Assembly (NCBI GenBank): GCA_902524385.1
Contig: CABZCZ010000007.1
Span: 6,091 to 70,090, forward strand
From: an uncultured Alphaproteobacteria bacterium
GTDB taxonomy: Bacteria; Pseudomonadota; Alphaproteobacteria; HIMB59; GCA-002718135
Length of the DNA: 64,000 nucleotides
Direction of reading: 5' to 3'
In this document: positions 11,970 through 44,049 of the stretch, piece after piece
How the letters are laid out: the number at the start of each line of letters is the position of its first letter
Position numbering within the stretch: the stretch's first letter is position 1
Made by a program: the position numbers and the translations under genes
Notes under the pieces: generated by a model
The model's database searches: none
Told to the model about the DNA's origin: nothing
The model's input: only the letters and a program-made list of their open reading frames with translations

Positions 11970-11980
11970 TTAAATATCAT

Positions 11981-12007
11981 AGTGTGGCTTTGTATAAAGC
12001 CACACTG
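11981..12007 (+). terminator. Stem-loop after the secreted-protein gene (partial terminator or attenuator)
   Basis: AGTGTGGCTTT-gtat-AAAGCCACACT is an 11-bp perfect stem 12 nt after the stop. There is no T-run, so read-through into the downstream genes is plausible. Confidence 0.5.
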
Positions 12008-12025
12008 CTAAACTGGTAAACTGGA

Positions 12026-14045: not shown

Positions 14046-14056
14046 TTTATAACCAA

Positions 14057-26579: not shown

Positions 26580-27473
26580 TTACTTCATGCCTGTCAAAGT
26601 AATTCCTTCAATAAATCGTTTTTGCGCGATTATAAAAGCAACAATAAGAGGAACTGTTACTGTAACTATCGAAGCCATCATAGGACCAAATTCGTCACTA
26701 TCAATTCCACCTCTGAATTCTCTTATACCAAGTGGTGGAGTAAAGAGATCTCTATTTCCTGTTATTACCATACGAGGCCAGAAATAATCATTCCAGTGTG
26801 CAACAACTGAGAATATTGCAAAAGCAAGTAAAGCTGGTATTGCAGTTGGAAGCATTACTTTCCATACAATTGCGTACTCTCCCATGCCATCCATCCTGGC
26901 GGCATCAATTAATTCATCGGGCACAGTCATAAAAAATTGCCGCATTAAAAAAATTCCAAACACTGATATTGTCCAGGGGAGTATTAAGGCGGAATAGGTA
27001 TCAACTAGTCCTGCCTGGGCCAACATAACATATAATGGAAGCGCAATTCCGTGAACTGGTATCAGCAAGCAAAATAAAACCATCGAGAAAACAAATTCTC
27101 GCCCATAAAACCGCAACTTGGCGAGTGCATACGCGCACGGCAAGGCGACTAAAACCTGAATAATAAAGATTGATAAAGTAACTATAACACCATTCATTAA
27201 GTATCTAGGAATAGGAGCTTTTTCAAAAGCAAACCAATAGTTGTATTGATATGGCTTCATTGTACATGTCTCCTCTGAATAGCCAGTTTTAACACATACG
27301 GGAAACGTTTGAGTTTCTTGCGCACCAATAAGACCACCAGAAATTGATTGGATTTCTTGCTGAGATTTTAATGACATTGAAACCATCATATAAAAAGGGA
27401 GCATCACTACGATAGCACCAATAATTAAGATTGCATGCTTCCAACCTTCCCCAATATATTGTTTAGCTTCCAT
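26580..27473 (-). CDS. ABC transporter permease, carbohydrate/glycerol-3-phosphate (UgpE-like) type
   Basis: Has 6 TM segments and an EAA loop (DELIDAARMDGMGEYAIVWKVMLP). Confidence 0.8.
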   Translation of the reverse strand: MEAKQYIGEGWKHAILIIGAIVVMLPFYMMVSMSLKSQQEIQSISGGLIGAQETQTFPVCVKTGYSEETCTMKPYQYNYWFAFEKAPIPRYLMNGVIVTLSIFIIQVLVALPCAYALAKLRFYGREFVFSMVLFCLLIPVHGIALPLYVMLAQAGLVDTYSALILPWTISVFGIFLMRQFFMTVPDELIDAARMDGMGEYAIVWKVMLPTAIPALLAFAIFSVVAHWNDYFWPRMVITGNRDLFTPPLGIREFRGGIDSDEFGPMMASIVTVTVPLIVAFIIAQKRFIEGITLTGMK

Positions 27474-28429
27474 TAATAATGAACCCTTCTCTCAATGATA
27501 TATCTTTGGAAGAAAGTTAATATCAATATAAAACCAATGAAGACAACAGTGATAGCTGCACCGATACTGGTTAAATTTTGTTGAATAGCTTTTTCAAAAA
27601 TTGCATACATCATAACGTAGGTTGTTTTAGATGGACCACCTTTTGTGAGTATTTCAATTGTATCAAAAACTTGAAAGGTTCTAATAGTCGTTATGGTTAC
27701 GACAAATAAAGTTGTTGGACCAAGCATTGGCCATGTCACAAGTTTAAATTGTTCCCAGGTTGATTTAGCTCCATCCATTTCTGCAGCTTGATATAGTTCT
27801 CTCGGTATACCTGTTAATCCAGCTAAATATAAAACCATATTGAAACCAAAGGCTTGCCATATTCCAATAAAACACACAGTCCAAATAGCAGTATTTTTTT
27901 GTTTTAACCAATAAGGAAAGTCCATGTTATTTGCACACGCCACTGCATACCAACTTTGTTCTGAGTCTACCCACGGCAACCAATGAAAACCAAAAATAAA
28001 TTCTCTTGCGCCACCACAACCATTAGCTAAAAAACTATTTACTATTCCAAGAGTTGGGTGAAGAGTGAATTCCCAAGCAATAGCCATTGCAAGAAGCGTC
28101 GCCATAACTGGAAGAAAGAAAATAGTTTTATATATATCAGCGCCAAACCTTAGTGAATTTAAGAGCATAGCAGCGCATAATCCAAGTACAACAGAAATTG
28201 GAACGACAACAATAACATACGTCGCTGTGGCCCAAATCATTTTGACATATGTTTTGCGATTGAACATCTTGTCATAATTTTCTAGTCCAACCCACTCGAA
28301 TGTTTTGTTTCCTAAATTATAGTCAGTAAAAGAAATTCCTCCTGCAAGAAAAAGAGGAAAGATTAAAATAATTATCATCAGTATGATTGCTGGTGCAATA
28401 AACCACAGATGAGCCTTTGAATTATGCAT
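27473..28429 (-). CDS. ABC transporter permease (UgpA-like)
   Basis: Has the EAA loop ELYQAAEMDGAKSTWEQFKLVTWP. It is coupled to the neighbouring permease by a 1-nt overlap. Confidence 0.8.
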   Translation of the reverse strand: MHNSKAHLWFIAPAIILMIIILIFPLFLAGGISFTDYNLGNKTFEWVGLENYDKMFNRKTYVKMIWATATYVIVVVPISVVLGLCAAMLLNSLRFGADIYKTIFFLPVMATLLAMAIAWEFTLHPTLGIVNSFLANGCGGAREFIFGFHWLPWVDSEQSWYAVACANNMDFPYWLKQKNTAIWTVCFIGIWQAFGFNMVLYLAGLTGIPRELYQAAEMDGAKSTWEQFKLVTWPMLGPTTLFVVTITTIRTFQVFDTIEILTKGGPSKTTYVMMYAIFEKAIQQNLTSIGAAITVVFIGFILILTFFQRYIIERRVHY

Positions 28430-28444
28430 TAGTAAATGTTATCC

Positions 28445-29584
28445 TTATCCCATTGCATTATTAAACTGAACCCTCATCCCTGTTTGATTAAATAACAATG
28501 CTTTATTTGAATCTCTTTTGATATTTACACTTGAACCATTTATAATTTGATGTGTAAATTGAGGTAAGCCTCTTACAATTATTTTTTTTGAGTTGTCTTC
28601 TATATTTACATGAAAGTATATATCTGACCCCAAATTTTCTCTGTAAGCAACAGTGCCACTAAATGTATTTTCATTACTTTCATTAGTAATTTCTAAATGT
28701 TCTGGTCGAATTCCAATGTGTAAATCGGAATTAATTTCAGAACTTTTTCTTTTCAGGTTAACATTTAAAAAATTAACAATTCCACTAGAGTCCGAAGATC
28801 CATTAAAAATATTTATTTTAGGACTGCCAACAAATTGAGCAACACTTAATGATGAAGGATTATCATAAACTTCTTGAGGTGTATCCAGTTGTAATAAATT
28901 TCCATCAATCATTACCGCCATACGAGAAGACATTGTCAATGCTTCTGCTTGATCATGTGTTACATAAACAAATGTTGTTTTAAGTGAATTGTGAAGTTCT
29001 GATAATTCGGATCGCATATGCACTCTTAGAGCGGCATCTAAATTTGATAGTGGTTCATCCATTAAGAATGCAACAGGTTCTCTTACCATTGCGCGACCAA
29101 GAGCTACTCTTTGTCTTTGGCCTCCTGATAATTGTCCTGGTTTTCTATCCAGTAGTTCAGAAATCTGAAGTGTTTCAGATGTTTTATTAACTAAGTGATT
29201 GATAGATTCAGTTTTACTTTTTTTGTTTGGAGAAAAATTCCCTATTAAAGGAAGGCGTTCGAAAGCATTATAATCTCTCAGTCTTAGAGGTGTTTCTAAA
29301 TTTCTTCGTACCGTTAAATGTGGATATAAAGCGTATGATTGAAATACCATTGCAAGATCTCGCTCGCTGGCTCTAATTTTATTTACATTCTTATTATCAA
29401 TTAATACATCGCCTGAAGTTTGTTGTTCTAATCCTGCAATGATTCGGAGTAAGGTAGATTTACCACAACCAGATGGACCAACTAATGTTAAAAATTCTCC
29501 ATCTTGTATATCAACATTTAAATTGTTTAATACTTGCGTAGATCCAAATGACTTTGAAATATTTTTAAGTGATATTGTGCCCAC
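28445..29584 (-). CDS. ABC transporter ATP-binding protein (UgpC/MalK type)
   Basis: Has GPSGCGKST, LSGGQRQRVALGRA and FLMDEP, plus a C-terminal regulatory domain. The GTG start is preceded by AAGGGGGGAG. Confidence 0.85.
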   Translation of the reverse strand: MGTISLKNISKSFGSTQVLNNLNVDIQDGEFLTLVGPSGCGKSTLLRIIAGLEQQTSGDVLIDNKNVNKIRASERDLAMVFQSYALYPHLTVRRNLETPLRLRDYNAFERLPLIGNFSPNKKSKTESINHLVNKTSETLQISELLDRKPGQLSGGQRQRVALGRAMVREPVAFLMDEPLSNLDAALRVHMRSELSELHNSLKTTFVYVTHDQAEALTMSSRMAVMIDGNLLQLDTPQEVYDNPSSLSVAQFVGSPKINIFNGSSDSSGIVNFLNVNLKRKSSEINSDLHIGIRPEHLEITNESNENTFSGTVAYRENLGSDIYFHVNIEDNSKKIIVRGLPQFTHQIINGSSVNIKRDSNKALLFNQTGMRVQFNNAMG

Positions 29585-29762: not shown

Positions 29763-31004
29763 GTGTCAGATAATTTAGAAATTAACAAAAGAGAATATCC
29801 AAGCTCTTTCTCGAAAACTGCTATTGTTATATGCCTTGATGGCAGTCAAAAAGAGTATCTCGACGAAGCATCAAAATCAAATCTTACGCCAAATCTTGAT
29901 AAATTAATTGCAAGTGGTGAAAACCTACTAGTTCACAGCGCTATTCCAAGTTTTACAAATCCTAATAATATTTCCATTGTAACTGGGCAGCCAAGTTCTG
30001 TTCACGGTATATGCGGAAACTTTTTCTATACACCTGAGACTGGTGAAGAAGTAATGATGAATGACCCAAAATATATGCGAGCACCAACTATTTTTGAAAA
30101 ATTTTATAATTCCGGTTCTAAAATTGTTCTTGTTACTGCAAAAGACAAGTTGAGAAAACTTTTAGGAAACGGATTAAGTTTTGATGATGAGAGAGCTATT
30201 TGTTTTTCTGCTGAAAAATCTGATCAAGCAACAAAAGATCTCAATGGTATAGATAATGTAAACGATTGGTTGGGGATGCCAGTGCCAGAAGTATATTCTG
30301 AAGGACTTTCTGAATTTGTAATGGCTGCAGGTGTAAAGCTTCTTGAAGAGTTTAAACCAAATATCATGTATTTATCTACTACGGATTATATTCAACACAA
30401 ATATGCACCGGGAAATGAAACAGCAAATAAATTTTATGCAATGTTTGATAAATATATTGGTCTTTTAAACAGGGAGAATGTTTCTATAATCATCACAGCA
30501 GATCACGGTATGAAACCAAAATCAAAAGAAGATGGTTCACCTAACGCAATATTTTTACAAGATTATTTAGATAAAAAATTTGAACCAAACATGGCTAAAG
30601 TCATCCTACCAATTACAGATCCATATGTCGTTCATCATGGTTCACTTGGTTCTTTTGCAACAATTTATTTAGAAGACAAGAGCAAGGTAGATTCAGTTGT
30701 AAATGCTATTAAAGAAATAAAAGATATAGAAGTTGTTTTAACAAAAGATGAAGGATGCTCTACTTATAATTTACCTCCTGATAGAATGGGGGATATCATA
30801 TGTATGTCTTCAGAATTTATGACTATTGGTTCATCGGAAGATAAACACAATCTTTCTGGATTAAATGAACCTTTACGTTCTCATGGAGGACTCCATGAAA
30901 GAGAAGTGCCATTCATATCAAATTTAAAATTACAAAATTTAGATACTAGCAAACAATTATATAACTATGATGCATTTTACTATGCAATTAACGGAGCCTT
31001 ATGA
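29763..31004 (+). CDS. phnA: Phosphonoacetate hydrolase (alkaline phosphatase superfamily)
   Basis: Extended agreement with the remembered PhnA sequence: [69 protein letters not shown] and PLRSHGG. It has a GTG start in the track. Confidence 0.88.
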
Positions 31005-32443
31005 TGCACAAAAAAATGATTAATGAAGCAATGCGTATAGCTGGAGAAAAAGTTACTTCAGATAAAACAATAAATGTTGAGTACCCTTTTACAGGTGAAG
31101 TAATCGGAACGGTCCCAGCCGGTACCGCAGAGCATGCAAGAAAGGCTTTAGATATTGCTGCAAATTATCAGCCTAAACTTACAAGATATGAGAGACAAAA
31201 AATTCTTCAAACTGCTGCTGAAGTACTTGTTAAAAGAAAAGAAGAAATTTCTGATATTATTACTTTAGAGCTTGGTATCTCAAAACAAGATTCTTTATAC
31301 GAAGTAGGAAGAGCTTTCGATGTATTTTCATTAACGGCTCAACTTTGTATTCATGATGATGGTGAAATATTTTCTTGTGATTTAACTCCGCATGGAAAAG
31401 CGAGAAAAATATTTACCATAAGAGAGCCCTTAACTGCAATTTCAGCAATAACTCCATTTAATCATCCTTTGAATATGGTAGCGCATAAAATTGCACCTTC
31501 AATTGCAACAAATAATTGTACTGTATGTAAACAAACAGAATTAACACCTTTAACAGCAATGGTACTCGCTGATGTTTTATATGAAGCTGGCTTACCACCA
31601 GAAATGTTTTCAGTTGTAACTGGATGGCCTCAAGATATTGGATCTGAAATGATCAAGAATCCAAATATTGATCTAATTACTTTTACAGGCAGTGTAGGTG
31701 TAGGAAAATTAATTGCTGAACAAGCTGGATATAAAAGAACAGTTCTTGAGCTAGGCGGTAATGATCCTTTAATTGTTTTAAATGACTTAGATGGTGATGA
31801 TCTTAAAAAAGCTGTTGAGTTAGCTGTTACTGGAGCAACGAAAAACTCTGGTCAACGTTGTACAGCTGTTAAAAGAATACTGGTTCAAGAATCAATTGCA
31901 GATCAATTTGTTGAAATGGCTCTTGAGCGTGCTAAGAAAATTAAATTTGGTGATCCTATGAATATGGAAACAGACTTAGGTACTGTTGTTAATGCTCAAG
32001 CTGCAGAACTTTTTGATAAAAGAGTTTCTATGGCTGAAGAAGACGGTGCAAAAATTTTATATCATCCTGGAAGAAAGGGTGCTTTGTTACCTCCAATAGT
32101 TGTAGATAATGTTGACCCTAAAAGTGAATTAGTTTTAGAAGAAACATTTGGTCCAGTTATCCCAATCATTCGTGTGCCTAATGACGATGAAGCTGTAATG
32201 AAAATATCTAATTCAACTGCATTCGGATTATCATCTGGTGTATGTACAAATAACTTCATGCGAGCAAAAAAATATATTCAAGGTTTAAATGTTGGTACGG
32301 TAAATATTTGGGAGGTTCCAGGCTATAGAATTGAAATGTCTCCTTTTGGAGGAATTAAAGATTCAGGTCTTGGTTACAAAGAGGGTGTTATTGAAGCAAT
32401 GAAAAGTTTTACTAATGTAAAAACCTTTTCGCTACCTTGGTAA
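31001..32443 (+). CDS. phnY: Phosphonoacetaldehyde dehydrogenase (aldehyde dehydrogenase family)
   Basis: ALDH fold with LELGGNDP (Glu) and GQRCTAVKR (Cys). It has an ATGA overlap with phnA, and phnW is nearby. Confidence 0.8.
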
Positions 32444-32579: not shown

Positions 32580-33833
32580 ATGAAAAAATTAATTATAGGA
32601 TTGGCAGCCGTACTAGCCTTTGGTTTTTATGGTTCTGTTAATTCAGCTAAGTCTATTGAAATAGAAGTAGCTTATCCCTATTCAGGGTTATTCGATGTAA
32701 CGTTTCAAGCTATTATGCCGGAGTTTGAAAAAGCACATCCAGATATTCAAGTTAAATTTAGAGCAACTTATGAAAACTATGAAGATGCAACTGCAACAAT
32801 CTTTAGAGAGTCTACTTCAGGTAATTTACCAGATGTAACAATGCAAGGTCTTAACAGACAGGCACCTCTAGTTGACAAAGGTATTGCTAAGTCTTTAGAG
32901 CCATTTATTGCAAAAGAGGCAGCTTTTGAAAAAGATGGTTACCATTCTGCTATGTTAAGTCTTTCAACATTCGGTGGTGAAGTTTATGGATTACCATTTT
33001 CTGTATCAACGCCAGTTGGTTATTATAACATGGATTTATTAGCTGAAGCAGGTGTAGATAGTATTCCAACTAACTGGGACGAAGTTATTGCAGCATGTAA
33101 GAAATTGGAAGCAGCAGGTAAAGGAACTCTATACTTTGGTTGGAACATTACAGGTAACTGGTTCCACCAAGCATTAATGCACACTCAGAACGTTCCAATG
33201 GTTAAGGATGGAGCTGTAAATATGGGTGGTGATGCAGGACTTGCAACGTTAGAGCAAATGAAAGCAATCATGAGCGAATGTAATATGCCGAACTATTCAA
33301 TTGCTGATGGTCAAGCTGCGTTTAACGCAGGTACTCTTGGTATGCAGTTCTGGTCTACTTCTAGCTTGGGTTCAGTTAATGCTGCAAAGGCAGACTTTGT
33401 TTTAAAAACTGCACCATTCCCTGGAATGGCAGGAGTTAACAATGGAACACCAGCAAGATTACCAGCAGGTGGAAACGCTGCAATGTTAGTGTCTACATCT
33501 GATGATCCAGCAAGAGTTGATGCTGCATGGACTTTCTTAAAGTTCATTACATCAGGTATTGGTGCTGCATTAGTTGCTGAAACAACTGGATATGTTCCAC
33601 CGAACAAAGCAGCGAATGAATTATTAGGTGATTTCTATAGTAACAACCCTAATAAACTTACTGCAGTTGAACAACTTCCACTTCTTGCAGATTGGTTTGC
33701 ATATCCTGGAGAAAATGGATTAGCTATTACACAGGTAATCTATGATTATACAGAAGAAATTGCTACAGGCGATGCTGATGATATGGCAGATCTTCAAGAA
33801 GAAATGATGGAAGAAATAAACGATCTTATGTAA
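32580..33833 (+). CDS. ABC transporter substrate-binding protein, family 1 (UgpB-like); ligand unknown (phosphonate, glycerophosphodiester or G3P are candidates)
   Basis: It is 417 aa with a signal peptide and a strong SD (GGGAGG). It is noticeably more GC-rich than its surroundings. Confidence 0.8.
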   Translation: MKKLIIGLAAVLAFGFYGSVNSAKSIEIEVAYPYSGLFDVTFQAIMPEFEKAHPDIQVKFRATYENYEDATATIFRESTSGNLPDVTMQGLNRQAPLVDKGIAKSLEPFIAKEAAFEKDGYHSAMLSLSTFGGEVYGLPFSVSTPVGYYNMDLLAEAGVDSIPTNWDEVIAACKKLEAAGKGTLYFGWNITGNWFHQALMHTQNVPMVKDGAVNMGGDAGLATLEQMKAIMSECNMPNYSIADGQAAFNAGTLGMQFWSTSSLGSVNAAKADFVLKTAPFPGMAGVNNGTPARLPAGGNAAMLVSTSDDPARVDAAWTFLKFITSGIGAALVAETTGYVPPNKAANELLGDFYSNNPNKLTAVEQLPLLADWFAYPGENGLAITQVIYDYTEEIATGDADDMADLQEEMMEEINDLM

Positions 33834-33863
33834 TTTGAGATTATTTATTATTAACTTTTTATT

Positions 33864-33895
33864 ACAGCGGCTTTATAAAAGCCGCTGTTTTATTT
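33864..33895 (+). terminator. Rho-independent terminator after the SBP gene
   Basis: ACAGCGGCTTT-ata-AAAGCCGCTGT followed by TTTATTTT. Confidence 0.8.
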
Positions 33896-33920
33896 TAAAT
33901 TTAAATGGGAGTAAAAATAG

Positions 33921-35000
33921 ATGCCTCTTACAACAACTACAATAGGTGCTTATCCAAAACCTAAACAAACACCGATACAAGATTGGTTTTTGGGGACAAA
34001 ATCAGAAGAAGAGAGAAAAGCTTCAAAAGGATTATTATCAAATTGGTCACCTGGGGCATATGAAAAAGCGTTAGAGTCTGCAGGTGCGGATGCTGAAAAA
34101 TTATTTTTATCAGCAATCAAAGAAGTTATAACTGATCAAGTAAATGCAGGTATTGATGTTCCAACTGATGGAGAAGTTAGACGTGAGAGTTATGTATTAT
34201 ATCAATGTCGATTTTTAAATGGAGTAAGTTTTAAAGAAGTTACACATAAGTCTGTAAGACAAGGTGCGTTCGAAGCTGATCTCCCAACTATTGTTGCACC
34301 AATTTCAAGTAAAGAAATACGCATACATTTAGACTGGAAGAGTGCACAACAATTTACAAAAAATCCAGTTAAAATTACCCTACCTGGACCAATGACAATT
34401 ACAGATTCAATTGCCAACAATTACTATGATGACATGAAAAAACTTGGTTTTGATTTAGCATTAGCACTTAATAAAGAAGTTAAAGCACTTGTAGATGCAG
34501 GTTGTCAGTATATTCAAATTGATGAACCAGTATTTGCTAGAAAGCCCGATGAAGCTCATTCTTACGGTATGGAAAATTTAGAAAGAATGATGCATGGTAT
34601 ACCTAAAGAAGTGCAACGCGTTTGCCATATTTGTTGTGGTTATCCTAACTCATTAGACTCAGAAGGTTATAAAAAGGCTGATCTAGATGCTTATGATAGA
34701 ATTGCATCACTTGTAGATGATTCAACTATTGATGAAGTATCTTTAGAAGATTCACATAGGCATAATGATTTAAATCTTTTAGAAAAATTTACTAAAACAA
34801 AAGTAATTTTTGGATTTATTGATATTGCAAAAAGTAGAATGGAGTCTGTTGAAGAAGTAAGAGTTCGTATCAAAGATTCACTTGAACATATTGATGAACA
34901 CCGTTTAATAGCTGCACCAGATTGTGGTTTAGGTTTCTTTACGCGAGAACAGGCAATTGAGAAAATGACAATTTTAACTAAAGCGGCAAAATCAATTTAA
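33921..35000 (+). CDS. Short cobalamin-independent methionine synthase (MetE C-terminal domain)-like Zn-dependent methyltransferase
   Basis: Has TTTIGAYPKP at the N-terminus and retains Zn-ligand-type motifs CHICCGYP (H-x-C) and APDCGLGF. It is 359 aa (single-domain). Confidence 0.7.
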   Translation: MPLTTTTIGAYPKPKQTPIQDWFLGTKSEEERKASKGLLSNWSPGAYEKALESAGADAEKLFLSAIKEVITDQVNAGIDVPTDGEVRRESYVLYQCRFLNGVSFKEVTHKSVRQGAFEADLPTIVAPISSKEIRIHLDWKSAQQFTKNPVKITLPGPMTITDSIANNYYDDMKKLGFDLALALNKEVKALVDAGCQYIQIDEPVFARKPDEAHSYGMENLERMMHGIPKEVQRVCHICCGYPNSLDSEGYKKADLDAYDRIASLVDDSTIDEVSLEDSHRHNDLNLLEKFTKTKVIFGFIDIAKSRMESVEEVRVRIKDSLEHIDEHRLIAAPDCGLGFFTREQAIEKMTILTKAAKSI

Positions 35001-35004
35001 GGTA

Positions 35005-36117
35005 ATGTGGAATTATTTTAACCCTGTTGAAATTATCTTTGGAGAAAATAGATTTAAAGAAGTACATGATGCTGTTAAAAATAAGAATTACATCATAATC
35101 ACGCATCCAGAAGAAATTTTTAAAAAATACAGTGATGAATTAAAATCTTCATCAAATCCACCACTATCCATTATGACGGATGTTCAGCCTAATCCAGATT
35201 ATAAGGATATTTTAGAGCTACAAAAAAAATTTTCATCAATCAATGAATCGGTAGATTATATTTTAGCTATAGGTGGTGGCTCTGTTACAGACACAGCTAA
35301 AGCAATTGCTGCATTTAAAGATAAACAAGAATATCTAACAGATTTCGTTCGCAATAAGAAAAGTCCTAGAGTTGAAAATCCAATCAAGATTATTGCAATA
35401 CCTACAACTTCAGGAACATCAAGTGAACTTACGTGTTGGGCCACAATTTGGGATAAAGAAAAAAATAATAAATTATCTTTGGCTCATAAATCTCTTTATG
35501 CAGAAAAAACAATTATCGATCCATCTATTATGGTTGATAAGCCTTTAGGCTTGACTATTTCAACTGGTTTAGATGCTCTCTCCCATTCAATGGAAAGTAT
35601 TTGGAATATTAATGCGAACCCAATTTCTGCTTCTCATGCAATACAAGCATCAAAATTAGTACTAGAAAATTTACCACTTCTCGCTAAAGATTTAAAAAAC
35701 GTTGAATTACGCTCAAACATTGCATTGGCGTGTGTTCATGCTGGCTTAGCGTTTTCCAATACGAAAACTGCTATTGCGCACAATCTATCATACCCTGTGA
35801 CACTCAATTACGGTATTCAGCATGGTATTGCTTGTTCATTTACTTTACCCATGATTACTAAAAGTATGGTTGGAATTGATAGTGTAGCAGAAGAAAGACT
35901 AAAGTTAATTTTTAATGATAATCTAGAGAATGCCGCAAATTATCTGAGTGAATTTATGCGTTCTTTAGAGGTTCCTCTTAACCTAAATGAAATAAAAGTT
36001 CCTGTTCAAGAGTGGAATAATATAGTAGATGGTGCGTTTTTAGGGGAACGAGGTAAAAACTTTATTGGCAATAAAGAAGCCTTCATCTCTTCTGCTAAAT
36101 CAATGGGACTTTATTAG
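35005..36117 (+). CDS. Group III iron-containing alcohol dehydrogenase; candidate 2-hydroxyethylphosphonate/phosphonoacetaldehyde oxidoreductase
   Basis: Has NPVEIIFG, GGGSVTDTAK and a His cluster (LDALSHSMES...AHNLSYP). It starts 4 nt after the MetE-like gene. The substrate assignment is inference from context. Confidence 0.75.
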   Translation: MWNYFNPVEIIFGENRFKEVHDAVKNKNYIIITHPEEIFKKYSDELKSSSNPPLSIMTDVQPNPDYKDILELQKKFSSINESVDYILAIGGGSVTDTAKAIAAFKDKQEYLTDFVRNKKSPRVENPIKIIAIPTTSGTSSELTCWATIWDKEKNNKLSLAHKSLYAEKTIIDPSIMVDKPLGLTISTGLDALSHSMESIWNINANPISASHAIQASKLVLENLPLLAKDLKNVELRSNIALACVHAGLAFSNTKTAIAHNLSYPVTLNYGIQHGIACSFTLPMITKSMVGIDSVAEERLKLIFNDNLENAANYLSEFMRSLEVPLNLNEIKVPVQEWNNIVDGAFLGERGKNFIGNKEAFISSAKSMGLY

Positions 36118-36119
36118 TA

Positions 36120-37226
36120 ATGAAAAAAAATTTCAGGTTTTATGATAACAGACAAAAATATTTATTATTTGTCACAACAACAAATGAAAAAAATCAAATT
36201 GCTGATGCGATACGTCCTCACGTAAATAAAATTAAACCTCAAAAACCCGGTTTAAAAATATTTGATGCTGGTATGGGTGATGGTTCCTTACTTATGAATG
36301 TGATGCGTCAGTGCCACGAAGCTAGGCCTAATGTACCTCTATTAGTTTGTACAAAAGAAATAAGTATTGAAGATGTAAGATTAGGTTTAGAAAAATTACC
36401 CGATAGGTTTGTTGAACATAAGAATACTGTTTTTGTTATTTCAAATCTACACTACGCTGAAGCCGCAAACCTAAAATCAAAAAATGAAGTTAAACAGAAA
36501 AAAATTAATTGGAATATTATTAAATTAAAAGGTGACACTTCTCTTGAATTTGCTCAACAATTAAGAAAACAAAATGAATTTTTAGAAAAAAAATGGAATA
36601 TAGAAATTAACAAAAAGTCAGGTAACCATACTTATAAAGAGCCTTCAGTCATGGTTATCTACCGCGAGGATCAAGAATTTAATGTTAATGAATTAATACC
36701 TACCAAAAAAAAATCAGATAATAAATTTGATCTCATCATAGCTTCACAGCCTTATCGGTCAAGAATTTCAGCAGAAAAAAAATCAAAATACGTCATCGAA
36801 CCAATGATAAAAGCGTTAAAACCAAAAGGTAAATTATTAACTATTCATGCTTCAGGAAAAGATCCTGCTAATGAAATAATTTGTAAAATTTGGCCAAAAG
36901 AGATCCCCTTTCCTTCTCTTGGAAATAGTATCATTTCTTATCTTAAGAAAAATTTAGATAAAGATTTATTAAGCAGTTTATCTTTTGGAGAAAAAAGAAT
37001 TATTAAATGTAAACTGAGAGCTCTACCAACAGAAATCACTGGAGGTATAGCGACATCATTAGTTTTTTCTGCTTGGAATGCCTCCATATATGTCAATCAA
37101 ATGGATGATGATAAAGTAATGAAGGTAGAAAAAACAAAAAATTACGAAAAAGTAGTTCAAAAAATTGTTGCTAAAAATAAAGGTCTTTATTTTAACAATG
37201 AAATATTTGTAATCGAAAAAAAATAA
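36120..37226 (+). CDS. Uncharacterised protein with a Rossmann SAM-methyltransferase-like motif I
   Basis: Has LKIFDAGMGDGSLL (a D/E-x-G-x-G-x-G-like motif). No family was recognised. It starts 2 nt after the ADH gene. Confidence 0.4.
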   Translation: MKKNFRFYDNRQKYLLFVTTTNEKNQIADAIRPHVNKIKPQKPGLKIFDAGMGDGSLLMNVMRQCHEARPNVPLLVCTKEISIEDVRLGLEKLPDRFVEHKNTVFVISNLHYAEAANLKSKNEVKQKKINWNIIKLKGDTSLEFAQQLRKQNEFLEKKWNIEINKKSGNHTYKEPSVMVIYREDQEFNVNELIPTKKKSDNKFDLIIASQPYRSRISAEKKSKYVIEPMIKALKPKGKLLTIHASGKDPANEIICKIWPKEIPFPSLGNSIISYLKKNLDKDLLSSLSFGEKRIIKCKLRALPTEITGGIATSLVFSAWNASIYVNQMDDDKVMKVEKTKNYEKVVQKIVAKNKGLYFNNEIFVIEKK

Positions 37227-37229
37227 TTA

Positions 37230-38018
37230 TTATTTAAACCAATTAACTTCTGTTTTTAAAAAATCCTCGGTATGAATAATTAAGGCGTCAGATCGAATTA
37301 TTGCAACATTATAATTTGTATCTGTATTTGCTGTCCCTAAACGATATTCATTTGAAAAGTTAGGTATCAGAGGAGACCAAGTACTTCTTGGGGAGGAAAA
37401 AGTAATACCACAATAAGAACCAGAACTTGTAATGTGCTGATGACCAAAAAAAATATGTTTTATTATCTTATTATTTTTAGTTAAAATTTGTTGAAACTCT
37501 TTTTTTTGTTGTAATCCTATTCCATCACTTTCCTCTTTTACTAATGCTAGTGGATTATGATGCATAAAGATGTACGTATCCGTATTAGTCTTACTTAAAA
37601 TATTATTTAACCATTCTTGCCTCTCTTCACAGTAATGTCCTTGGTGAGTGTTAATCAGATTAGTATCTATAAAAATTAAACGTTTATTATCTATATCCTT
37701 AAAGTATTGAATAAATCCATTTGAATCGGTTTCAATATTAGGAAAGTTTATTTTAAACTCATCTCTGTTATCATGATTACCTATAATTAATTGAGGATTT
37801 AAATTCTTTGGCAGATCTGCTTCATCAATTATTTTTATAAATAACTGATAAGAATCTTTATCACCTAAGTCTGTAATATCACCAGTGATAGCAAATAAAT
37901 CCGCATCACCATGATTATTTTTTATATGACTTAATGCTTTTTTAAATTTACTGACAGGATCTATGCCATGAATCTTATCTATATAAATATGGGGGTCTGA
38001 AAGGTGAATAATTTTCAT
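37230..38018 (-). CDS. Calcineurin-like metallophosphoesterase (class III PDE, CpdA/GpdQ-like diesterase)
   Basis: Motif series: SDPH, GDITD, GNHDN, MHH, GHQH. Confidence 0.8.
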   Translation of the reverse strand: MKIIHLSDPHIYIDKIHGIDPVSKFKKALSHIKNNHGDADLFAITGDITDLGDKDSYQLFIKIIDEADLPKNLNPQLIIGNHDNRDEFKINFPNIETDSNGFIQYFKDIDNKRLIFIDTNLINTHQGHYCEERQEWLNNILSKTNTDTYIFMHHNPLALVKEESDGIGLQQKKEFQQILTKNNKIIKHIFFGHQHITSSGSYCGITFSSPRSTWSPLIPNFSNEYRLGTANTDTNYNVAIIRSDALIIHTEDFLKTEVNWFK

Positions 38019-38678: not shown

Positions 38679-39776
38679 TTAGTTTAATGTTAATCCTAAT
38701 TCAGTAACGACTTCTTTTACAGCTTTTATTGTGTCCATCATGTCTTGTTCATCTAAATTACCAATACACCCAATTCTAAAAGTTTCTGCCACTGTTAGTT
38801 TTCCTGGATAAATTAAAAAATCTTTTTCACTAAGAGCATTATAAAATTTCTCAAAGTTAAATTTAGGATCATTAGGTTGTTTAAACGTAATAATAATTGG
38901 TGCTTGCAAATTATCAGGAAGTAGTTGCTCAAATCCCAACTCTTTCATTCCATTACAAATAATTTCACAATTTTTTTTATATCTTTTGCCTCGTCCCTCT
39001 ACACCGCCTTGTTCTTTATGTTCCTCAATCGCTTGATTGAATGCAGCCAATACATGTGTTGGAGGTGTAAATCGCCATTGTTTATTTTTTTCCATTGCTT
39101 GCCATTGATCATATAAGTCTAGACTTAGTGAGTGACTATTGCCTTTTGCATTTTGAATAACTTCATTTTTAACAAGAATGAAACCAACACCTGGCACACC
39201 TTCTAAGCATTTGTTTGATGAAGCGGCTACAGCATCAAAAGTAATTGTTTTAGAACTTAAGGGTAATGCACCAAAGGCACTCATTGCATCGATGAATAAC
39301 GATAAGTTTTTCATTTCAACTAATTTTGCAATCTCTTCAATAGGATTTAAAATACCCGATGTTGTTTCACAATACACAGCAAAGACGTGTGTTAAGTTGT
39401 TTCTATCAATTAACTCTTCAATTTTATTGATGTCATGTACTTCATGTTCAGCAACTTCATATTCAATAAAATCTCTCCCTAAATAAGTGCACATTTTTTT
39501 CATTCTTTGCCCGTAAGCACCATTGATCAGAATCAGAATTTTAGAATCTTTTTGAGTAAGAGAGCTCACCATCGACTCTACAGCAAAAGTTCCACTTCCC
39601 TGCATTGGAACACATTGATATTTATCTTCACCGTCTATTAATTTAACAAGGGAATCTCTAATTGATGCATTGAGATCAATAAATTTTGTATCCCTTGAAC
39701 CCCAATCATGAAGCATAGCCTCTTTTGTTGACATCGATGTCGTGAGAGGACCAGGGGTTAATAATTTTTTATCCAT
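38679..39776 (-). CDS. phnW: 2-aminoethylphosphonate--pyruvate transaminase
   Basis: Class V aminotransferase with LLTPGPLTTS at the N-terminus and 365 aa. It is in the same cluster as phnA and phnY. Confidence 0.8.
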   Translation of the reverse strand: MDKKLLTPGPLTTSMSTKEAMLHDWGSRDTKFIDLNASIRDSLVKLIDGEDKYQCVPMQGSGTFAVESMVSSLTQKDSKILILINGAYGQRMKKMCTYLGRDFIEYEVAEHEVHDINKIEELIDRNNLTHVFAVYCETTSGILNPIEEIAKLVEMKNLSLFIDAMSAFGALPLSSKTITFDAVAASSNKCLEGVPGVGFILVKNEVIQNAKGNSHSLSLDLYDQWQAMEKNKQWRFTPPTHVLAAFNQAIEEHKEQGGVEGRGKRYKKNCEIICNGMKELGFEQLLPDNLQAPIIITFKQPNDPKFNFEKFYNALSEKDFLIYPGKLTVAETFRIGCIGNLDEQDMMDTIKAVKEVVTELGLTLN

Positions 39777-39864
39777 TAAATATTCACTTAATAAATATTA
39801 TTATAAATTTGATCAATCTTATTAAAGTTGGAATTGAATTTATTTTCTAATAAGTTAATTATAA

Positions 39865-40434
39865 ATGAGAATGGAAGAAAATATCGTAGATTATCTCTTA
39901 GATCTTTTGAAAACAAAAGGTGCTGATATTCAATATGGTAATGAGGATGTGACTCAGCTTGAGCACGCACTCCAATGTGCCGAACTTGCTGAAAAACATA
40001 AATTACCAGGACCAACAATTGCTGCAGCATTATTACACGATGTTGGCCACCTTATCTATGAGGACGGCGATCCCATTCATGAAGGGAAAGATGGTCATCA
40101 TGAAAACTTAGGTGCTGATTTTTTAAAAAAATATTTTGGTGAAGATGTTATTTTACCAATTAGAGCACATGTTGATTCAAAAAGATATTTATCAAGTGTT
40201 GAAGAAGGTTATTATGATAGTCTATCAGAAGCATCGAAACTTTCGTTAAAAGTTCAAGGTGGTCCTTTCACAAAAGAAGAAGCAGATGCGTTTATAAGCA
40301 AACCTTTTATGGATGAGGCAGTTGAGCTTAGAAGATTTGATGATTTAGCAAAAATTCTAGATAAAAAAACTCCCGATGTTGAACATTTTCGTCCCTATTT
40401 AGAAGAAGCAAGACAGTCTTTTTTAGCTAAATAA
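39865..40434 (+). CDS. phnZ: HD-domain di-iron oxygenase of the PhnZ/TmpB family (TIGR03276-like)
   Basis: QLEHALQCA, AALLHDVGH, HHEN, AHVDSKRYL, LSEASKLSLKVQGGPF and RRFDDLAK match the remembered PhnZ blocks. It is divergent from phnW. Confidence 0.7.
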   Translation: MRMEENIVDYLLDLLKTKGADIQYGNEDVTQLEHALQCAELAEKHKLPGPTIAAALLHDVGHLIYEDGDPIHEGKDGHHENLGADFLKKYFGEDVILPIRAHVDSKRYLSSVEEGYYDSLSEASKLSLKVQGGPFTKEEADAFISKPFMDEAVELRRFDDLAKILDKKTPDVEHFRPYLEEARQSFLAK

Positions 40435-40440: not shown

Positions 40441-40965
40441 ATGCAATTTAGCAATTATGATTTTATTGACTCTAAGTCATTTGCAGGCAAAATTATATTA
40501 ACTTCTTTTCCAGGTCTTAATTCTAATGGTTTATTTGAAGAAACAATTTTAGCAAACGAATTAGAAATATTTAAAAATAACAATTGTAGTTCTATTACTT
40601 CTTTTGTTGAAGATAGCGAATTTGAAAAATTGTGTGATAAAACTTTGTTTGTCAAAAATATTTATGAACATAAATTACATTGGTACCATTTACCCATTTA
40701 TGACATGGGAGCACCAGATAAAGATTTTAAATATAAATGGGAAACAACAAAAGTTTTATTAAAGAACGAATTGATAGATGGTAAAAATATAGTTTTACAT
40801 TGCCGTGGAGGAAAAGGAAGAGCTGGCACCATAGCTGCTATTTTACTTGTTGAATTTAATTATCAAAAACAAGAAGCTATCGATCTAGTGCGATCAAGAA
40901 GAAAAGGGGCTATTGAATCTAAAATCCAGGAAGATTTTATTTTTTCTTATCGAGCAGTTGATTAA
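40441..40965 (+). CDS. Cys-based (CX5R) dual-specificity/PTP-like phosphatase, cytoplasmic
   Basis: Has the P-loop HCRGGKGRAGT and an upstream DMGAPD general-acid loop. There is no signal peptide. Confidence 0.7.
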   Translation: MQFSNYDFIDSKSFAGKIILTSFPGLNSNGLFEETILANELEIFKNNNCSSITSFVEDSEFEKLCDKTLFVKNIYEHKLHWYHLPIYDMGAPDKDFKYKWETTKVLLKNELIDGKNIVLHCRGGKGRAGTIAAILLVEFNYQKQEAIDLVRSRRKGAIESKIQEDFIFSYRAVD

Positions 40966-42014
40966 AAAGAGACCGTTAAATTAAAAATATTTTCTAGAAT
41001 AAATAAAACAATTAAAGAAATTAATGCTGCAATTATAGGTAGTGTCATCCAACCCAAAGAAATTCTTCCCGCAATTGACCATTGAACCTCTTTGCCTCCT
41101 TTTAAAAGACCAATTCCAATTACGCCGCCAACAACAGCTTGGGAACTTGATACTGGAACCAAAGGTATAGAGGGAAGATTTATAGATTGTAAAAAAGCAC
41201 TTATGCCCTGGGATGCAAATAAAAATAAAACAATAGAATGCGATATAACAACAATAAATGCTGCCACAGGCGTCATTTTTAAAAGATCATTACCAACGGT
41301 AAACATAACTCTTTTCGAGTAAGTAAAAACACCAACGGCTATTGCTAAACCACCCAGCAGAAATAATTGTTCTTTTGAAGAAAAGACAAGTAAATTTCCA
41401 ATAGAAACATCAGTAAATGGCGATATAGGTACGAAGACCCCCATTACATTGGCAATATTGTTTGCACCTAAACTATAAGCACCAAAAGCACCCGCTAAAA
41501 GTAAAGCTGTTCTTGTGTAAGCATCAAGTCTGAGAATATGTAACTTTCTATTAAGTATAACTCTTTTTGTAAAAGTAAATAAACCCATTGCAATAACCCC
41601 TGCAATGATAGGACAGAGTATCCATGTTCCTAAAATAGTAATTAAAACTTGAAGATTAGTTGAAGATCCCGTGTATAAATTCCAACCAACAATTGCTCCA
41701 ACAATCGCTTGCGTTGTTGAAACAGGCAAGCCAACTTTGGTCATTAAATAAACAGATATTCCCGCAGCGACACATGCTGCAAAAGCACCAGGTAATGCAT
41801 TAATAGCACCTAACTTACCTAAAGTTTCTGTTGTACCTGCTCCGCTAATAATTGCACCCAGAATAACAAAGACACTACAAATTATTGCTGCAGTTGTGAA
41901 ACCAACCATTCGCGTCCCAACAGCAGTCCCAAAAACATTTGCTGCATCATTGGCACCAAGTGACCAACCTAAAAAAAGACCACCAAATAAAAAAATTAGA
42001 ATTGTAATTTCCAT
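40962..42014 (-). CDS. pit: Inorganic phosphate transporter, PiT family
   Basis: Has two GANDAANVFGT/GANNIANVMG repeats and LPVSTTQAIVG/VPVSSSQAVVG. Confidence 0.88.
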   Translation of the reverse strand: MEITILIFLFGGLFLGWSLGANDAANVFGTAVGTRMVGFTTAAIICSVFVILGAIISGAGTTETLGKLGAINALPGAFAACVAAGISVYLMTKVGLPVSTTQAIVGAIVGWNLYTGSSTNLQVLITILGTWILCPIIAGVIAMGLFTFTKRVILNRKLHILRLDAYTRTALLLAGAFGAYSLGANNIANVMGVFVPISPFTDVSIGNLLVFSSKEQLFLLGGLAIAVGVFTYSKRVMFTVGNDLLKMTPVAAFIVVISHSIVLFLFASQGISAFLQSINLPSIPLVPVSSSQAVVGGVIGIGLLKGGKEVQWSIAGRISLGWMTLPIIAALISLIVLFILENIFNLTVSF

Positions 42015-42020
42015 TGAAAA

Positions 42021-42683
42021 TTAAACGGAACGTTTAATAGCGTAAATTTGAACCTCGTCAGCTATGTCTTCTGCTTGATCACAAATACGATCAATCTTCT
42101 CTACAAAATATCGAAGATGCATTTTTTGATCTAGAGGTAATTCAGAGTCAAAAATTCTTCTTGCAAGAGAACTAAATTTTATATCAGATTCTTTTTCATA
42201 AAATGTAACTTTATGTGCATTATCTCTAACAGATTTAATATCTCTAAAAAATGATCTTACGGTTAAACATAATGATTCAACACAATTTACAACAGTCTCT
42301 GTTAACTCAATTAAATCTTGGTGAAACTCTTTTGGAAAATTAGGTTTTTGAATAGAGAAGTGATAACAATTCCCTTGGTACATTCCAATTAATTCGTCGA
42401 TGTGTTCTAAAAGTCTTAAAACGTCACTTCTTGCATCTGGGATTAGTGTTTCTTCATAAAGAGTATGCTCAACATCTTTCGTAATCTTGTCTGCCTTACT
42501 TTCCATTTCTTTTACTTTTTCAACCATTTCCTCAAATTTACCGTTGGCGGAATGATTTAGATAAGTTGGAACTATCGATTTAAATACCAAACCAACTTCA
42601 GAGACAATATCAACAAATTCATCAATTTCTCTTTCAAGTTTCTTGGTATCACCAAATAAAGATGCACTTTTTAGTCCAAACAT
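42021..42683 (-). CDS. DUF47/TIGR00153 PhoU-like phosphate-transport regulator partner of PiT
   Basis: It is a 220-aa helical protein immediately upstream of pit, the usual pairing. Confidence 0.75.
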   Translation of the reverse strand: MFGLKSASLFGDTKKLEREIDEFVDIVSEVGLVFKSIVPTYLNHSANGKFEEMVEKVKEMESKADKITKDVEHTLYEETLIPDARSDVLRLLEHIDELIGMYQGNCYHFSIQKPNFPKEFHQDLIELTETVVNCVESLCLTVRSFFRDIKSVRDNAHKVTFYEKESDIKFSSLARRIFDSELPLDQKMHLRYFVEKIDRICDQAEDIADEVQIYAIKRSV

Positions 42684-43041: not shown

Positions 43042-44049
43042 TTAGTTTTTAGAATCAATTTGAGAATCTAGAAATTCATTAGCACAATCTTCCCAAGTAA
43101 ATTTCAAAGCTAAATTACGACAATCATTTCTATTCACTTTAAGAGCTTTTTCTACTGAATTACCTAGTCTGTCATCAAGTGTATTTATTTTAGAATCTTT
43201 TAGAATATCTTTTGGTCCAGTAACAGGAAATGCAGCAATTGGTGTCCCGCAAGCAAGAGCTTCAAGTATTACATTCCCTAAAGTATCCGTTTTAGATGGG
43301 AAAACAAATACATCAGCATTCGCATAATATTCTGCAAGTTCATTACCTCGTTTCAACCCAACAAAATTTACGTCAGGATACTTTTTTATATATTTTTGTA
43401 ATTCAGGACCATCACCTACAACTGTTTTATTATAATTTCCTTTTAGTTTTAAAAATTCTTCAATATTTTTTTCAATAGCAACTCTTCCAACATATGTCAG
43501 TTGAATGTCATTATCATTTCTATTTCTTTTATTTGGGTTGAATAATTCAGTATCAACTCCTCTATTCCATACTTTTAAATTTTTGAAATTATATTGCTCT
43601 AATTCTTCGACCATTGAAAGCGATGGAACAAGTACATTTACAGAATTATCATGAAGCCTTCTTAATATTGAATATGTTAAACTTTTAGGAATATAAGCTC
43701 TCTGTTTAATATAATCAGGAAAACGGGTGTGAAAAGAAGAAGTATATCGTAGTTTATTTTTAACACAGTATTTACGACCAGCAAAACCTACTGGACCTTC
43801 AGTCATTATATGAACAATATCAGGATTAAATTCTTTAAAAAATTTTTCTGTAACTTTTTTAGTATTTAAAGAAATTTTAATTTCTTTGTACCAAGGATAA
43901 CTAAAATTATTAAACATCTCAGGATGTAATATTTTAATTTCAAAACCTTTTTTTTCTAGGAGAGGTATAACGCTTTGAAATGTTGTAACTACGCCATTTA
44001 CCTGAGGAACCCACGCATCACTAATTAACGCGATTTTTTTAAGCTGCAT
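43042..44049 (-). CDS. agt: GT4 glycosyltransferase, probable glycolipid (MGDG/GADG) synthase Agt
   Basis: GT-B/GT4 C-terminal block (VFPSKTDTLGNVILEALACGTP). It overlaps the upstream PlcP-like gene by 11 nt. Confidence 0.7.
   Translation of the reverse strand: MQLKKIALISDAWVPQVNGVVTTFQSVIPLLEKKGFEIKILHPEMFNNFSYPWYKEIKISLNTKKVTEKFFKEFNPDIVHIMTEGPVGFAGRKYCVKNKLRYTSSFHTRFPDYIKQRAYIPKSLTYSILRRLHDNSVNVLVPSLSMVEELEQYNFKNLKVWNRGVDTELFNPNKRNRNDNDIQLTYVGRVAIEKNIEEFLKLKGNYNKTVVGDGPELQKYIKKYPDVNFVGLKRGNELAEYYANADVFVFPSKTDTLGNVILEALACGTPIAAFPVTGPKDILKDSKINTLDDRLGNSVEKALKVNRNDCRNLALKFTWEDCANEFLDSQIDSKN

Follow-up and report, generated by a model that had tools for sequence, protein, structure and literature searches.

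A predicted PhnZ/TmpB-family HD oxygenase encoded without a neighbouring hydroxylase in the phosphonate island of SAR11 bacteria

The 64,000-nucleotide stretch of contig CABZCZ010000007.1 analysed here, from an uncultured alphaproteobacterium and referred to below as the window, has a G+C content of 30.4% and carries a gene for a 189-residue HD-domain protein that is predicted to be an oxygenase of the PhnZ/TmpB family. As an earlier sequence-based note on this DNA (the original prediction) had it, this gene is paired divergently with phnW, which encodes 2-aminoethylphosphonate (AEP):pyruvate transaminase. phnW, phnY and phnA lie within 10 kb of each other, and the product of each scores above the cutoff of its equivalog model (Table 1). 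The window is a phnWAY plus phnZ cluster without pbfA, located inside the variable phosphate-acquisition island of SAR11 (Pelagibacterales) bacteria, an assignment made because the additional genes of related loci include ppk, ppx, pst and pho genes.

Every sequence criterion tested agreed with the assignment of this protein to the PhnZ/TmpB family. All six PhnZ-like blocks listed for the 189-residue reading frame were located, at residues 31-39 (QLEHALQCA), 56-62 (LLHDVGH), 78-81 (HHEN), 101-109 (AHVDSKRYL), 131-135 (QGGPF) and 156-163 (RRFDDLAK). The protein matched the Pfam HD domain (E = 3.1e-8), and its top NCBIfam model was TIGR03276, "phosphonate degradation HD-domain oxygenase", a hypothetical equivalog whose cutoff of 214.6 bits was narrowly missed at 201.4 bits. 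Two further equivalog models, NF049941 for TmpB (156.7 bits) and NF052439 for the hydroxymethylphosphonate dioxygenase PhnZ1 (153.0 bits), were not reached at their cutoffs of 300. Searched against PDB sequences, the protein aligned end to end with TmpB (6npa, E = 2e-32 over residues 6-180) and PhnZ (4mlm/4n71/4n6w, E ~6e-29 over residues 8-182), with no other match at E <= 0.01; myo-inositol oxygenase (MIOX) was not retrieved. An exact-sequence look-up returned no record, while a collection of 5.8 billion proteins yielded 1070 relatives at E <= 1e-10, the closest 97-99% identical, which places the family match far above chance. The relatives listed are of marine-metagenome origin, including Tara, and some of their clusters have more than 1000 member sequences. 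When one genome per GTDB species was scanned, 156 relatives were found. All of the best 80 belonged to uncultured Alphaproteobacteria, Pelagibacteraceae or Pelagibacterales known from single-amplified or metagenome-assembled genomes, several with an HD protein 100% identical to that of the window, and on this basis the window is assigned to SAR11. Clustered at 50% identity, the SAR11 HD proteins formed essentially a single group (P0121, 71% identical), beyond which relatives were at most 54% identical. We use "SAR11 clade" for the HD proteins of the window and their closest relatives. The clade representative P0121 also remained below the TIGR03276 cutoff (200.9 bits), whereas the closest non-SAR11 relatives scored above it, at 218-235 bits.

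The active site was examined in an alignment of the window protein with PhnZ, TmpB and 115 representatives of the SAR11 clade that are 68-99% identical to it. The six di-iron ligands of the pattern H...HD...H...H...D are present as H34, H58, D59, H79, H102 and D159, aligned with H34, H58, D59, H80, H104 and D161 of PhnZ, and are conserved across the clade, contrary to what would be seen in a clade of HD hydrolases lacking the di-iron ligands, the outcome named beforehand as fatal to the oxygenase assignment. The loop Y24-G-N-E27 corresponds to Y24/E27 of PhnZ and Y30/E33 of TmpB, with the tyrosine found in 115 of 115 clade representatives and the glutamate in 114. This YxxE loop and the ligand motif have defined roles in the characterised enzymes, in which the tyrosine caps Fe2 until the substrate arrives and the glutamate then hydrogen-bonds the substrate amino group (PMC8177086). 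Five further residues of the window protein (H62, K106, S124, Q131 and R156) recur in both PhnZ and TmpB; any roles for residues outside the ligands and the loop are putative and follow from conservation. The ligands, the loop and these five residues are retained in 113-115 of the 115 sequences despite overall identities of only 68-99%, which indicates that purifying selection maintains an active enzyme. The window protein is therefore predicted to be an intact oxygenase-type HD enzyme and not a degenerate hydrolase.

Over 180 aligned columns the window protein is 36.6% identical to PhnZ and 39.0% identical to TmpB, which are themselves 35.5% identical to each other. By neighbour joining (143 sequences, 100 bootstraps) the SAR11 HD sequences formed a clade with 100% support, and all deeper nodes had 0-12% support, so that a sister group cannot be named from this tree. 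As for the placement relative to PhnZ, TmpB and MIOX that had been proposed as a check, on these comparisons the protein stands outside both the PhnZ (HF130) and TmpB groups, in a clade of its own with unsupported deep branching, and MIOX is not retrieved by sequence.

Neither a hydroxylase nor a PbfA-type enzyme was found with the HD gene. A Pfam scan of all window open reading frames (ORFs) of at least 100 residues, 10 of them individually and the other 55 joined into 18 pseudo-proteins, gave no match at E <= 1e-3 to PF05721 (PhyH), PF02668 (TauD) or 2OG-FeII_Oxy, shorter ORFs and those cut at the window ends lying outside the scan. The original claim that no PhyH/TauD-type ORF occurs in the window is borne out to that extent, and it extends to 86 related SAR11 loci (87 loci including the window) that were compared with it by tblastn of the window's island proteins. 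Tblastn with three PhyH/TauD domains taken from natural HD fusion proteins gave no match at E <= 1e-5, neither in the window nor in these 86 loci. ORFs of at least 110 residues in the related loci that lack a counterpart in the window formed 43 clusters, and Pfam was run on those 24 representatives that had 140 residues or more and no annotation yet. These represented polyphosphate kinase, Ppx, PstS/PstC/PstA, PhoR/PhoB, glycerophosphodiester phosphodiesterase (GDPD), a low-molecular-weight phosphatase, aquaporin, homocysteine S-methyltransferases and binding proteins, and none was an oxygenase or a PbfA-like enzyme. No class-III aminotransferase domain (Aminotran_3), the PbfA type, was found in the window ORFs of at least 100 residues or in the scanned extra genes. 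The 2-oxoglutarate (2OG) hydroxylase gene beside the HD gene that defines the PhnY*/PhnZ and TmpA/TmpB pathways is thus missing within about 10 kb, both in the window and in the related set. The only other oxygenase-type domain in the window, a membrane FA_hydroxylase at 12026-13036, was considered as a partner and rejected, being weakly OlsE-like (47 bits), 27 kb away and in an iron-uptake context. That region (10590-16713) encodes a DUF4856 protein, the FA_hydroxylase and a set of ABC binding protein, permease and ATPase, and it looks iron- or lipid-related, without an evident phosphonate link.

Comparison of the related loci also separated the constant from the optional neighbours of the HD gene. 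On its left the island runs phnA, phnY, an optional module encoding a substrate-binding protein (SBP), a MetE-like protein and an iron-containing alcohol dehydrogenase (Fe-ADH), an optional gene for a 368-residue orphan, and then metallophosphoesterase, cupin and phnW. On its right, the HD gene, divergent to phnW, is followed by an optional EamA gene and AEP-type ABC transporter, a gene for a phosphatase resembling dual-specificity phosphatases (DSP) and, on the opposite strand, PHO4 and PhoU_div. phnW abuts the HD gene in 75 of the 80 loci with at least 3 kb of upstream sequence, and the cupin gene follows immediately downstream of phnW in 77 of 77. The metallophosphoesterase is present in 68 of 73 loci and the orphan in 67 of 73; the SBP, MetE-like and Fe-ADH genes were counted in 55, 55 and 57 loci. 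These counts are not independent, as the HD protein is at least 85% identical to the query in 71 of the 87 loci; among the 10 "divergent" loci, in which it is below 85% identical, the orphan is found in four and the Fe-ADH in two. The SBP, MetE-like and Fe-ADH genes (32580-36117) have the appearance of an inserted module, one that about 55 of 73 loci contain and many divergent relatives lack. In 80 of 87 loci the next gene after the HD gene is that for the DSP-like phosphatase; in some loci an AEP ABC transporter is inserted between the two. Relatives' loci further contain pstSCA, phoBR, ppk, ppx and GDPD genes, and in them an AEP-type phnS2 ABC transporter is encoded immediately adjacent to the HD gene.

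Four loci depart from this order. The HD gene occurs without phnW and cupin in L002, L003 and L084, with a phnS2-type AEP binding protein alongside, and in L001 the cupin gene and phnW remain together, with about 7 kb of other genes between the pair and the HD gene. At these places (L001 2835-5173, L084 3753-5168, and L002/L003) the phnW-cupin pair beside the HD gene is replaced or supplemented by genes for a TIGR03329 "putative aminophosphonate oxidoreductase" (618.8 bits, cutoff 632.8), a kinase resembling choline kinase/APH and a phnS2-type AEP ABC transporter; the oxidoreductase stands beside the HD gene in L084 as well. These alternative neighbours suggest alternative entry routes for N-substituted aminophosphonates.

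Table 1 Features of the phosphonate island in the window
Feature	Coordinates	Strand	Basis
PhnZ/TmpB-family HD-domain di-iron oxygenase (predicted), SAR11 clade, 189 aa	39865..40434	+	ATG start; homology, ligands H34/H58/D59/H79/H102/D159, YxxE loop Y24/E27
Intergenic spacer between phnW and HD gene, AT-rich, 88 bp, divergent	39777..39864		ORF coordinates
PhnW, 2-aminoethylphosphonate:pyruvate transaminase	38679..39776	-	NF010006 512.8 bits, cutoff 296
AllA-fold cupin, 210 aa	38039..38671	-	Pfam PF04115, AlphaFold model, Foldseek
Calcineurin-like metallophosphoesterase, SpdA-like, 262 aa; candidate phosphodiesterase/phosphonate-ester hydrolase	37230..38018	-	Metallophos 5.5e-17; NF050112 175.8 bits, below 400
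368-aa orphan, conserved but optional	36120..37226	+	Sub-threshold Methyltransf_31, residues 189-255
PhpC-type Fe-ADH, predicted 2-hydroxyethylphosphonate dehydrogenase	35005..36117	+	Pfam Fe-ADH and ADH_Fe_C; TIGR03405 360.9 bits, below 423.7
MetE-like protein (cobalamin-independent methionine-synthase catalytic domain)	33921..35000	+	Domain matches
UgpB-like ABC substrate-binding protein (SBP), same module as MetE-like and Fe-ADH	32580..33833	+	Domain matches
PhnY, phosphonoacetaldehyde dehydrogenase (not PhnY*)	31001..32443	+	TIGR03250 798.3 bits, cutoff 635.65
PhnA, phosphonoacetate hydrolase	29763..31004	+	TIGR02335 466.4 bits, cutoff 407.55
ABC transporter: permeases 26580-27473 and 27473-28429, ATPase 28445-29584; divergent to phnA	26580..29584	-	Domain matches
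Cys-based phosphatase of DSP/protein tyrosine phosphatase (PTP) type, 174 aa, HCRGGKGR motif	40441..40965	+	Pfam PTP-SAK 6.1e-13
PHO4-family phosphate transporter 40962-42014 and PhoU_div/DUF47 42021-42683; conserved right-hand island anchor	40962..42683	-	Domain matches and conservation in related loci

Immediately downstream of the HD gene, 6 bp separate its stop codon from the start of the DSP/PTP-like phosphatase gene, the 3' end of which shares 4 bp with the convergent PHO4 gene. The HD gene is proposed to be regulated by phosphate; between 39600 and 41200, nine promoter-like sites were counted (8.2 expected from shuffles) and no terminators, and no search aimed at a Pho box was made. No Rfam family reached its gathering score anywhere in the window. 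Beyond PhoU_div, on the minus strand at 43042-44851, a GT4 glycosyltransferase gene with weak similarity to diacylglycerol glucosyltransferases overlaps a gene for an LpxH-like metallophosphoesterase, and this pair recurs in 68 of 87 loci. We take it to resemble the plcP-agt lipid-remodelling pair, which serves phospholipid replacement in SAR11 under phosphate starvation.

Three neighbours, the Fe-ADH, the cupin and the orphan, had been proposed as suppliers of the 1-hydroxy substrate, and none of them fits this role well. Fe-ADH enzymes of the TIGR03405 type were described in 2026 as PhpC-type 2-hydroxyethylphosphonate (2-HEP) dehydrogenases, which feed phosphonoacetaldehyde to PhnX or to PhnY/PhnA (PMC13576164). 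By analogy, the Fe-ADH of the window would account for its own presence and would make no 1-hydroxyphosphonate, and its rarity in the divergent loci also speaks against it. The orphan is an optional gene; its product has neither a confident Pfam match nor an NCBIfam family, and PDB sequences gave nothing at E <= 1.

The cupin required structural comparison. It matched Pfam Ureidogly_lyase (PF04115) over residues 119-182 only and E. coli AllA over residues 113-174, and reached at most 33 bits against the NCBIfam AllA models (cutoffs 160-315, that of the top model being 230), over residues 113-181 only. An AlphaFold model built with a 42-homologue alignment had a pLDDT (the model's per-residue confidence score) of 85.6, compared with 31 for a single-sequence model. 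Foldseek placed the AllA lyases 2bdr, 1xsq, 1xsr and 1yqc on top (E 3e-9 to 8e-8, target-normalised TM score 0.64-0.71) at 14% identity in the structural alignment, and the other matches at E <1e-3 were proteins of unknown function. HEPD, MPnS and HppE were not among the Foldseek matches, and JmjC-type 2OG oxygenases appeared only at E >=5e-3 and TM <0.33. Residues H78, H115, H119, D121, Q124, H164, H169, H189 and R191 are invariant, and the protein is about 45 residues longer than AllA, including a low-confidence loop at 39-51. On this model the cupin is an AllA-fold protein, not an oxygenase cupin, and would belong with phnW rather than with the HD gene; it is a candidate for a new "phosphonate breakdown factor", one not described in the phosphonate literature searched. 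A combined route was also rejected, in which AEP would pass through phosphonoacetaldehyde to 2-HEP (Fe-ADH), then to hydroxymethylphosphonate (cupin) and finally to formate and phosphate (HD enzyme). Against such a HEPD-like route stand the resemblance of the cupin to AllA and not to HEPD, MPnS or HppE, the distribution of the Fe-ADH in the divergent loci and the direction of the reaction shown for this Fe-ADH class, from HEP to phosphonoacetaldehyde (PMC13576164).

Relatives outside the SAR11 clade show with which functions HD proteins of this family can be fused. Among the closest, HD domains are joined to hydroxylases of the PhyH type (P0167, P0190) and of the TmpA-like TauD type (P0138; NF049936 365 bits, cutoff 400), and in P0131 to a genuine PhnX phosphonatase (TIGR01422 343.9 bits, cutoff 220). 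Further fusion partners are a Zn-ADH of PbfG-like Pfam type (P0128), transporters of the DUF5690 (P0133) or MFS (P0153) kind and additional HAD hydrolases; some fusions may be gene-calling artefacts. Since relatives are fused to PhnX as well as to PhyH/TauD, linkage to the hydrolytic pathway appears recurrent, and the family is, as judged from these fusions, linked to both hydroxylases and the hydrolytic pathway. P0128, P0131, P0133 and P0153, if real proteins, would be Rosetta-stone links of PhnZ-like oxygenases to the hydrolytic and HEP pathways.

The original prediction took it as established that the hydroxylase is normally encoded next door, which published surveys do not support. Among 19,425 complete genomes, phnZ homologues were found in 24 of 75 phnWAY clusters and 15 of 1186 phnWX clusters, while phnY*Z clusters numbered no more than 7 (Zangelmi et al. 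2021, PMC8154272). Within phnWAY and phnWX clusters phnZ never occurred together with pbfA. The same study showed that (R)-1-hydroxy-2-aminoethylphosphonate (R-HAEP) is not properly handled by PhnW-PhnX, and read the phnZ association as separate processing of R-HAEP (PMC8154272). Ocean surveys since 2010-2012 have found phnZ to be 3-6 times commoner than phnY* (PMC3266647): in Global Ocean Sampling (GOS) data, phnZ was present in 9.4% of genome equivalents, phnY* in 1.6% and phnA in 11.2% (Villarreal-Chiu et al. 2012, PMC3266647), and figures of Martinez et al. 2010, as quoted in the same paper, were 10% for phnZ and 3% for phnY*. The figures of 9.4% and 1.6% argue that most marine carriers of phnZ lack phnY* anywhere in the genome. 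phnZ itself has been divided into subclades, the characterised AEP type proving very scarce (Murphy et al. 2021, PMC8316502). phnZ had already been listed for SAR11 strain HTCC7211 (Grote et al. 2012, PMC3448164). The partnerless PhnZ homologue in a phnWAY cluster is the commoner and already documented arrangement, and what is new here is the SAR11-specific clade.

We lean, with moderate confidence, towards the explanation that the HD gene encodes a functional PhnZ-type mixed-valent di-iron oxygenase that has no dedicated hydroxylase and acts on imported, pre-hydroxylated phosphonates, R-HAEP first among them. Of the three possibilities originally put forward, the use of pre-hydroxylated environmental phosphonates such as R-HAEP is the best supported, and it coincides with the published reading of this arrangement (PMC8154272). 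1-Hydroxyphosphonates would be imported from seawater already hydroxylated, and the HD enzyme would split the C-P bond oxidatively to yield orthophosphate and glycine. As established for PhnZ and TmpB, the 1-hydroxyl and phosphonate groups of the substrate would bind Fe1, Tyr24 of the YxxE loop would leave Fe2, Glu27 would hydrogen-bond the 2-amino group, and breakage of the C-P bond would regenerate Fe(II)/Fe(III) without an external reductant. The HD enzyme may thereby constitute an accessory branch of the hydrolytic phosphonate island in SAR11, in which AEP would be converted to phosphonoacetaldehyde by PhnW, to phosphonoacetate by PhnY and to acetate and phosphate by PhnA, with 2-HEP joining through the PhpC-type Fe-ADH. 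It would fill the role held in other bacteria by the lyase PbfA, and the absence of pbfA from the window agrees with the published mutual exclusivity of phnZ and pbfA, consistent with R-HAEP being handled separately (PMC8154272).

Several points weigh against this explanation. The window protein is below the cutoffs of TIGR03276, TmpB and PhnZ1, forms part of a clade of its own and shares only 36.6% and 39.0% of its residues with PhnZ and TmpB. TmpB, whose substrate is a quaternary amine, has the glutamate of the YxxE loop as well, and this residue therefore does not pin down a primary amine. PhnZ1 of Gimesia maris also cleaves hydroxymethylphosphonate (PMC10574752), and the activity of the SAR11 clade, as of other partnerless PhnZ proteins, is a prediction from sequence. 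It is unlikely, on balance, that the chemistry is the same and the substrate another, with hydroxymethylphosphonate or other 1-hydroxyalkylphosphonates, derived from marine dissolved organic matter (DOM) or other microbes, giving formate or another acid and phosphate instead of glycine. The separate, fully supported clade below all three equivalog cutoffs would accord with this, as would the acceptance of both hydroxymethylphosphonate and R-HAEP by G. maris PhnZ1 (PMC10574752) and the 2-HEP module in the window, which implies that the island targets alkylphosphonates of DOM (PMC13576164). P0121 scores slightly higher with the PhnZ1 model (164.7 bits) than with that of TmpB (149.9 bits), but the window protein marginally favours TmpB (153 and 156.7 bits), so the models do not discriminate; furthermore, 114 of 115 sequences retain the amine-binding Glu27, and the closest neighbours of the HD gene are AEP genes, namely phnW and, in relatives, that for the phnS2-type AEP binding protein. 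We also find it quite improbable that a canonical 2OG hydroxylase of the PhnY*/TmpA type from another part of the genome supplies the HD enzyme in trans. Examination covered 64 kb of the genome, which leaves room for such a gene, but in ocean metagenomes phnZ outnumbers phnY* by a factor of 3-6 (PMC3266647), Tara data contain very little bona fide AEP-type phnY*Z (PMC8316502), all the other phosphonate genes are packed in one island, and no hydroxylase lies within about 10 kb in the 87 loci.

A neighbour could instead make the 1-hydroxy substrate, the AllA-fold cupin alone or with PhnW, so that cupin, PhnW and HD enzyme would form a new three-gene oxidative route for AEP; this we hold to be very improbable. 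Cupin-fold iron enzymes that act on phosphonates without 2OG do exist (HEPD, MPnS and HppE), the cupin is unassigned in function, eight of its invariant residues (H78, H115, H119, D121, Q124, H164, H169 and H189) could bind metal, and the gene both adjoins phnW in 77 of 77 loci and, with it, abuts the HD gene in 75 of 80. The structural matches nevertheless point to AllA lyases, to the exclusion of HEPD, MPnS, HppE and 2OG oxygenases from the significant matches, and we know of no AllA-family member that is an oxygenase. The exceptional loci agree, since the HD gene is found without cupin and phnW in L002, L003 and L084 and the cupin gene stays with phnW, about 7 kb from the HD gene, in L001. 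We hardly credit the remaining alternative, an HD phosphohydrolase or inactive relic, even though the majority of HD-domain proteins are hydrolases (PMC8177086) and the TIGR03276 score falls narrowly under its cutoff: the clade as a whole conserves the six ligands and the YxxE loop specific to the oxygenases, the sole PDB sequence matches at E <= 0.01 are two phosphonate oxygenases, and these abundant proteins are evidently subject to purifying selection.

The arrangement itself will be unsurprising to specialists, and its value is ecological. Survey estimates of phnZ differ more than 10-fold, a discrepancy flagged in a 2023 review: less than 1% of surface genomes when only characterised subtypes are counted, against about 20%, which would make it the top phosphonate catabolic gene (PMC10574752). 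Tara data likewise showed phnZ as the most abundant gene of phosphonate catabolism, and Pelagibacterales contributed 45% of marine phnZ sequences (Lockwood et al. 2022, PMC9381506). The SAR11 clade, which has intact oxygenase sites, no hydroxylase alongside and a place beyond the three characterised subtypes, is the probable source of much of the disputed signal. The identity of the substrate bears on whether SAR11 cells mineralise hydroxylated aminophosphonates, gaining phosphate and glycine, which they need, and on how phnZ counts are read in marine phosphorus-cycle models. We consider it doubtful that the SAR11 clade is not an R-HAEP enzyme at all and uses a different 1-hydroxyphosphonate (hydroxymethylphosphonate or one derived from DOM) or a substrate supplied by the AllA-fold cupin; if this were true, the most abundant oxidative C-P cleavage gene of the surface ocean would act in an undescribed pathway, and marine inventories equating phnZ with AEP catabolism would be mis-assigned.

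Compared with characterised enzymes, the window protein shares full-length homology, the metal ligands, the YxxE loop and the five additional residues with PhnZ of uncultured bacterium HF130_AEPn_1 (4MLM/4MLN/4N6W), an R-HAEP oxygenase, at 36.6% identity; the HF130 gene adjoins phnY*, whereas the SAR11 gene adjoins phnW without a hydroxylase. TmpB of Leisingera caerulea (6NPA), which oxidises (R)-1-hydroxy-2-trimethylaminoethylphosphonate, is the best PDB match (39.0%) and has the same ligands and loop. Unlike the TmpB system, the window has no gene for a TmpA of the TauD/GBBH-like type; the protein scores 156.7 bits against the TmpB cutoff of 300, and its loop 62-79 is acidic in sequence (E66, D67, D69, E73, D76), whereas that of TmpB is rich in phenylalanine. 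PhnZ1 of Gimesia maris and PhnZ of Prochlorococcus MIT9301 belong to the same family and are likewise marine, and PhnZ1 accepts 1-hydroxyphosphonates including R-HAEP (PMC10574752), but these enzymes are paired with a methylphosphonate-specific PhnY*, and the window protein scores 153 bits against the PhnZ1 cutoff of 300. MIOX has in common with this family the chemistry of a mixed-valent di-iron oxygenase in an HD domain (PMC8177086); it lacks the YxxE loop, cleaves C-C and not C-P bonds, and was not retrieved at E <= 0.01. PbfA, mutually exclusive with phnZ (PMC8154272), is presumed to do the same job in the cell, the handling of R-HAEP alongside the PhnW pathway, yet it is an unrelated pyridoxal-phosphate enzyme, absent from the window, that needs no O2 and yields phosphonoacetaldehyde and ammonia instead of glycine and phosphate. 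The closest parallel is provided by the partnerless phnZ genes of phnWAY and phnWX clusters (PMC8154272, Table 1), in which, as in the window, a phnZ homologue accompanies phnW, phnY and phnA without phnY* or pbfA. The SAR11 HD proteins differ from these in forming a distinct clade, and the SAR11 island adds the AllA-fold cupin, the metallophosphoesterase, the 368-residue orphan and the DSP-type phosphatase, together with a PhpC-type HEP module in a subset of loci.

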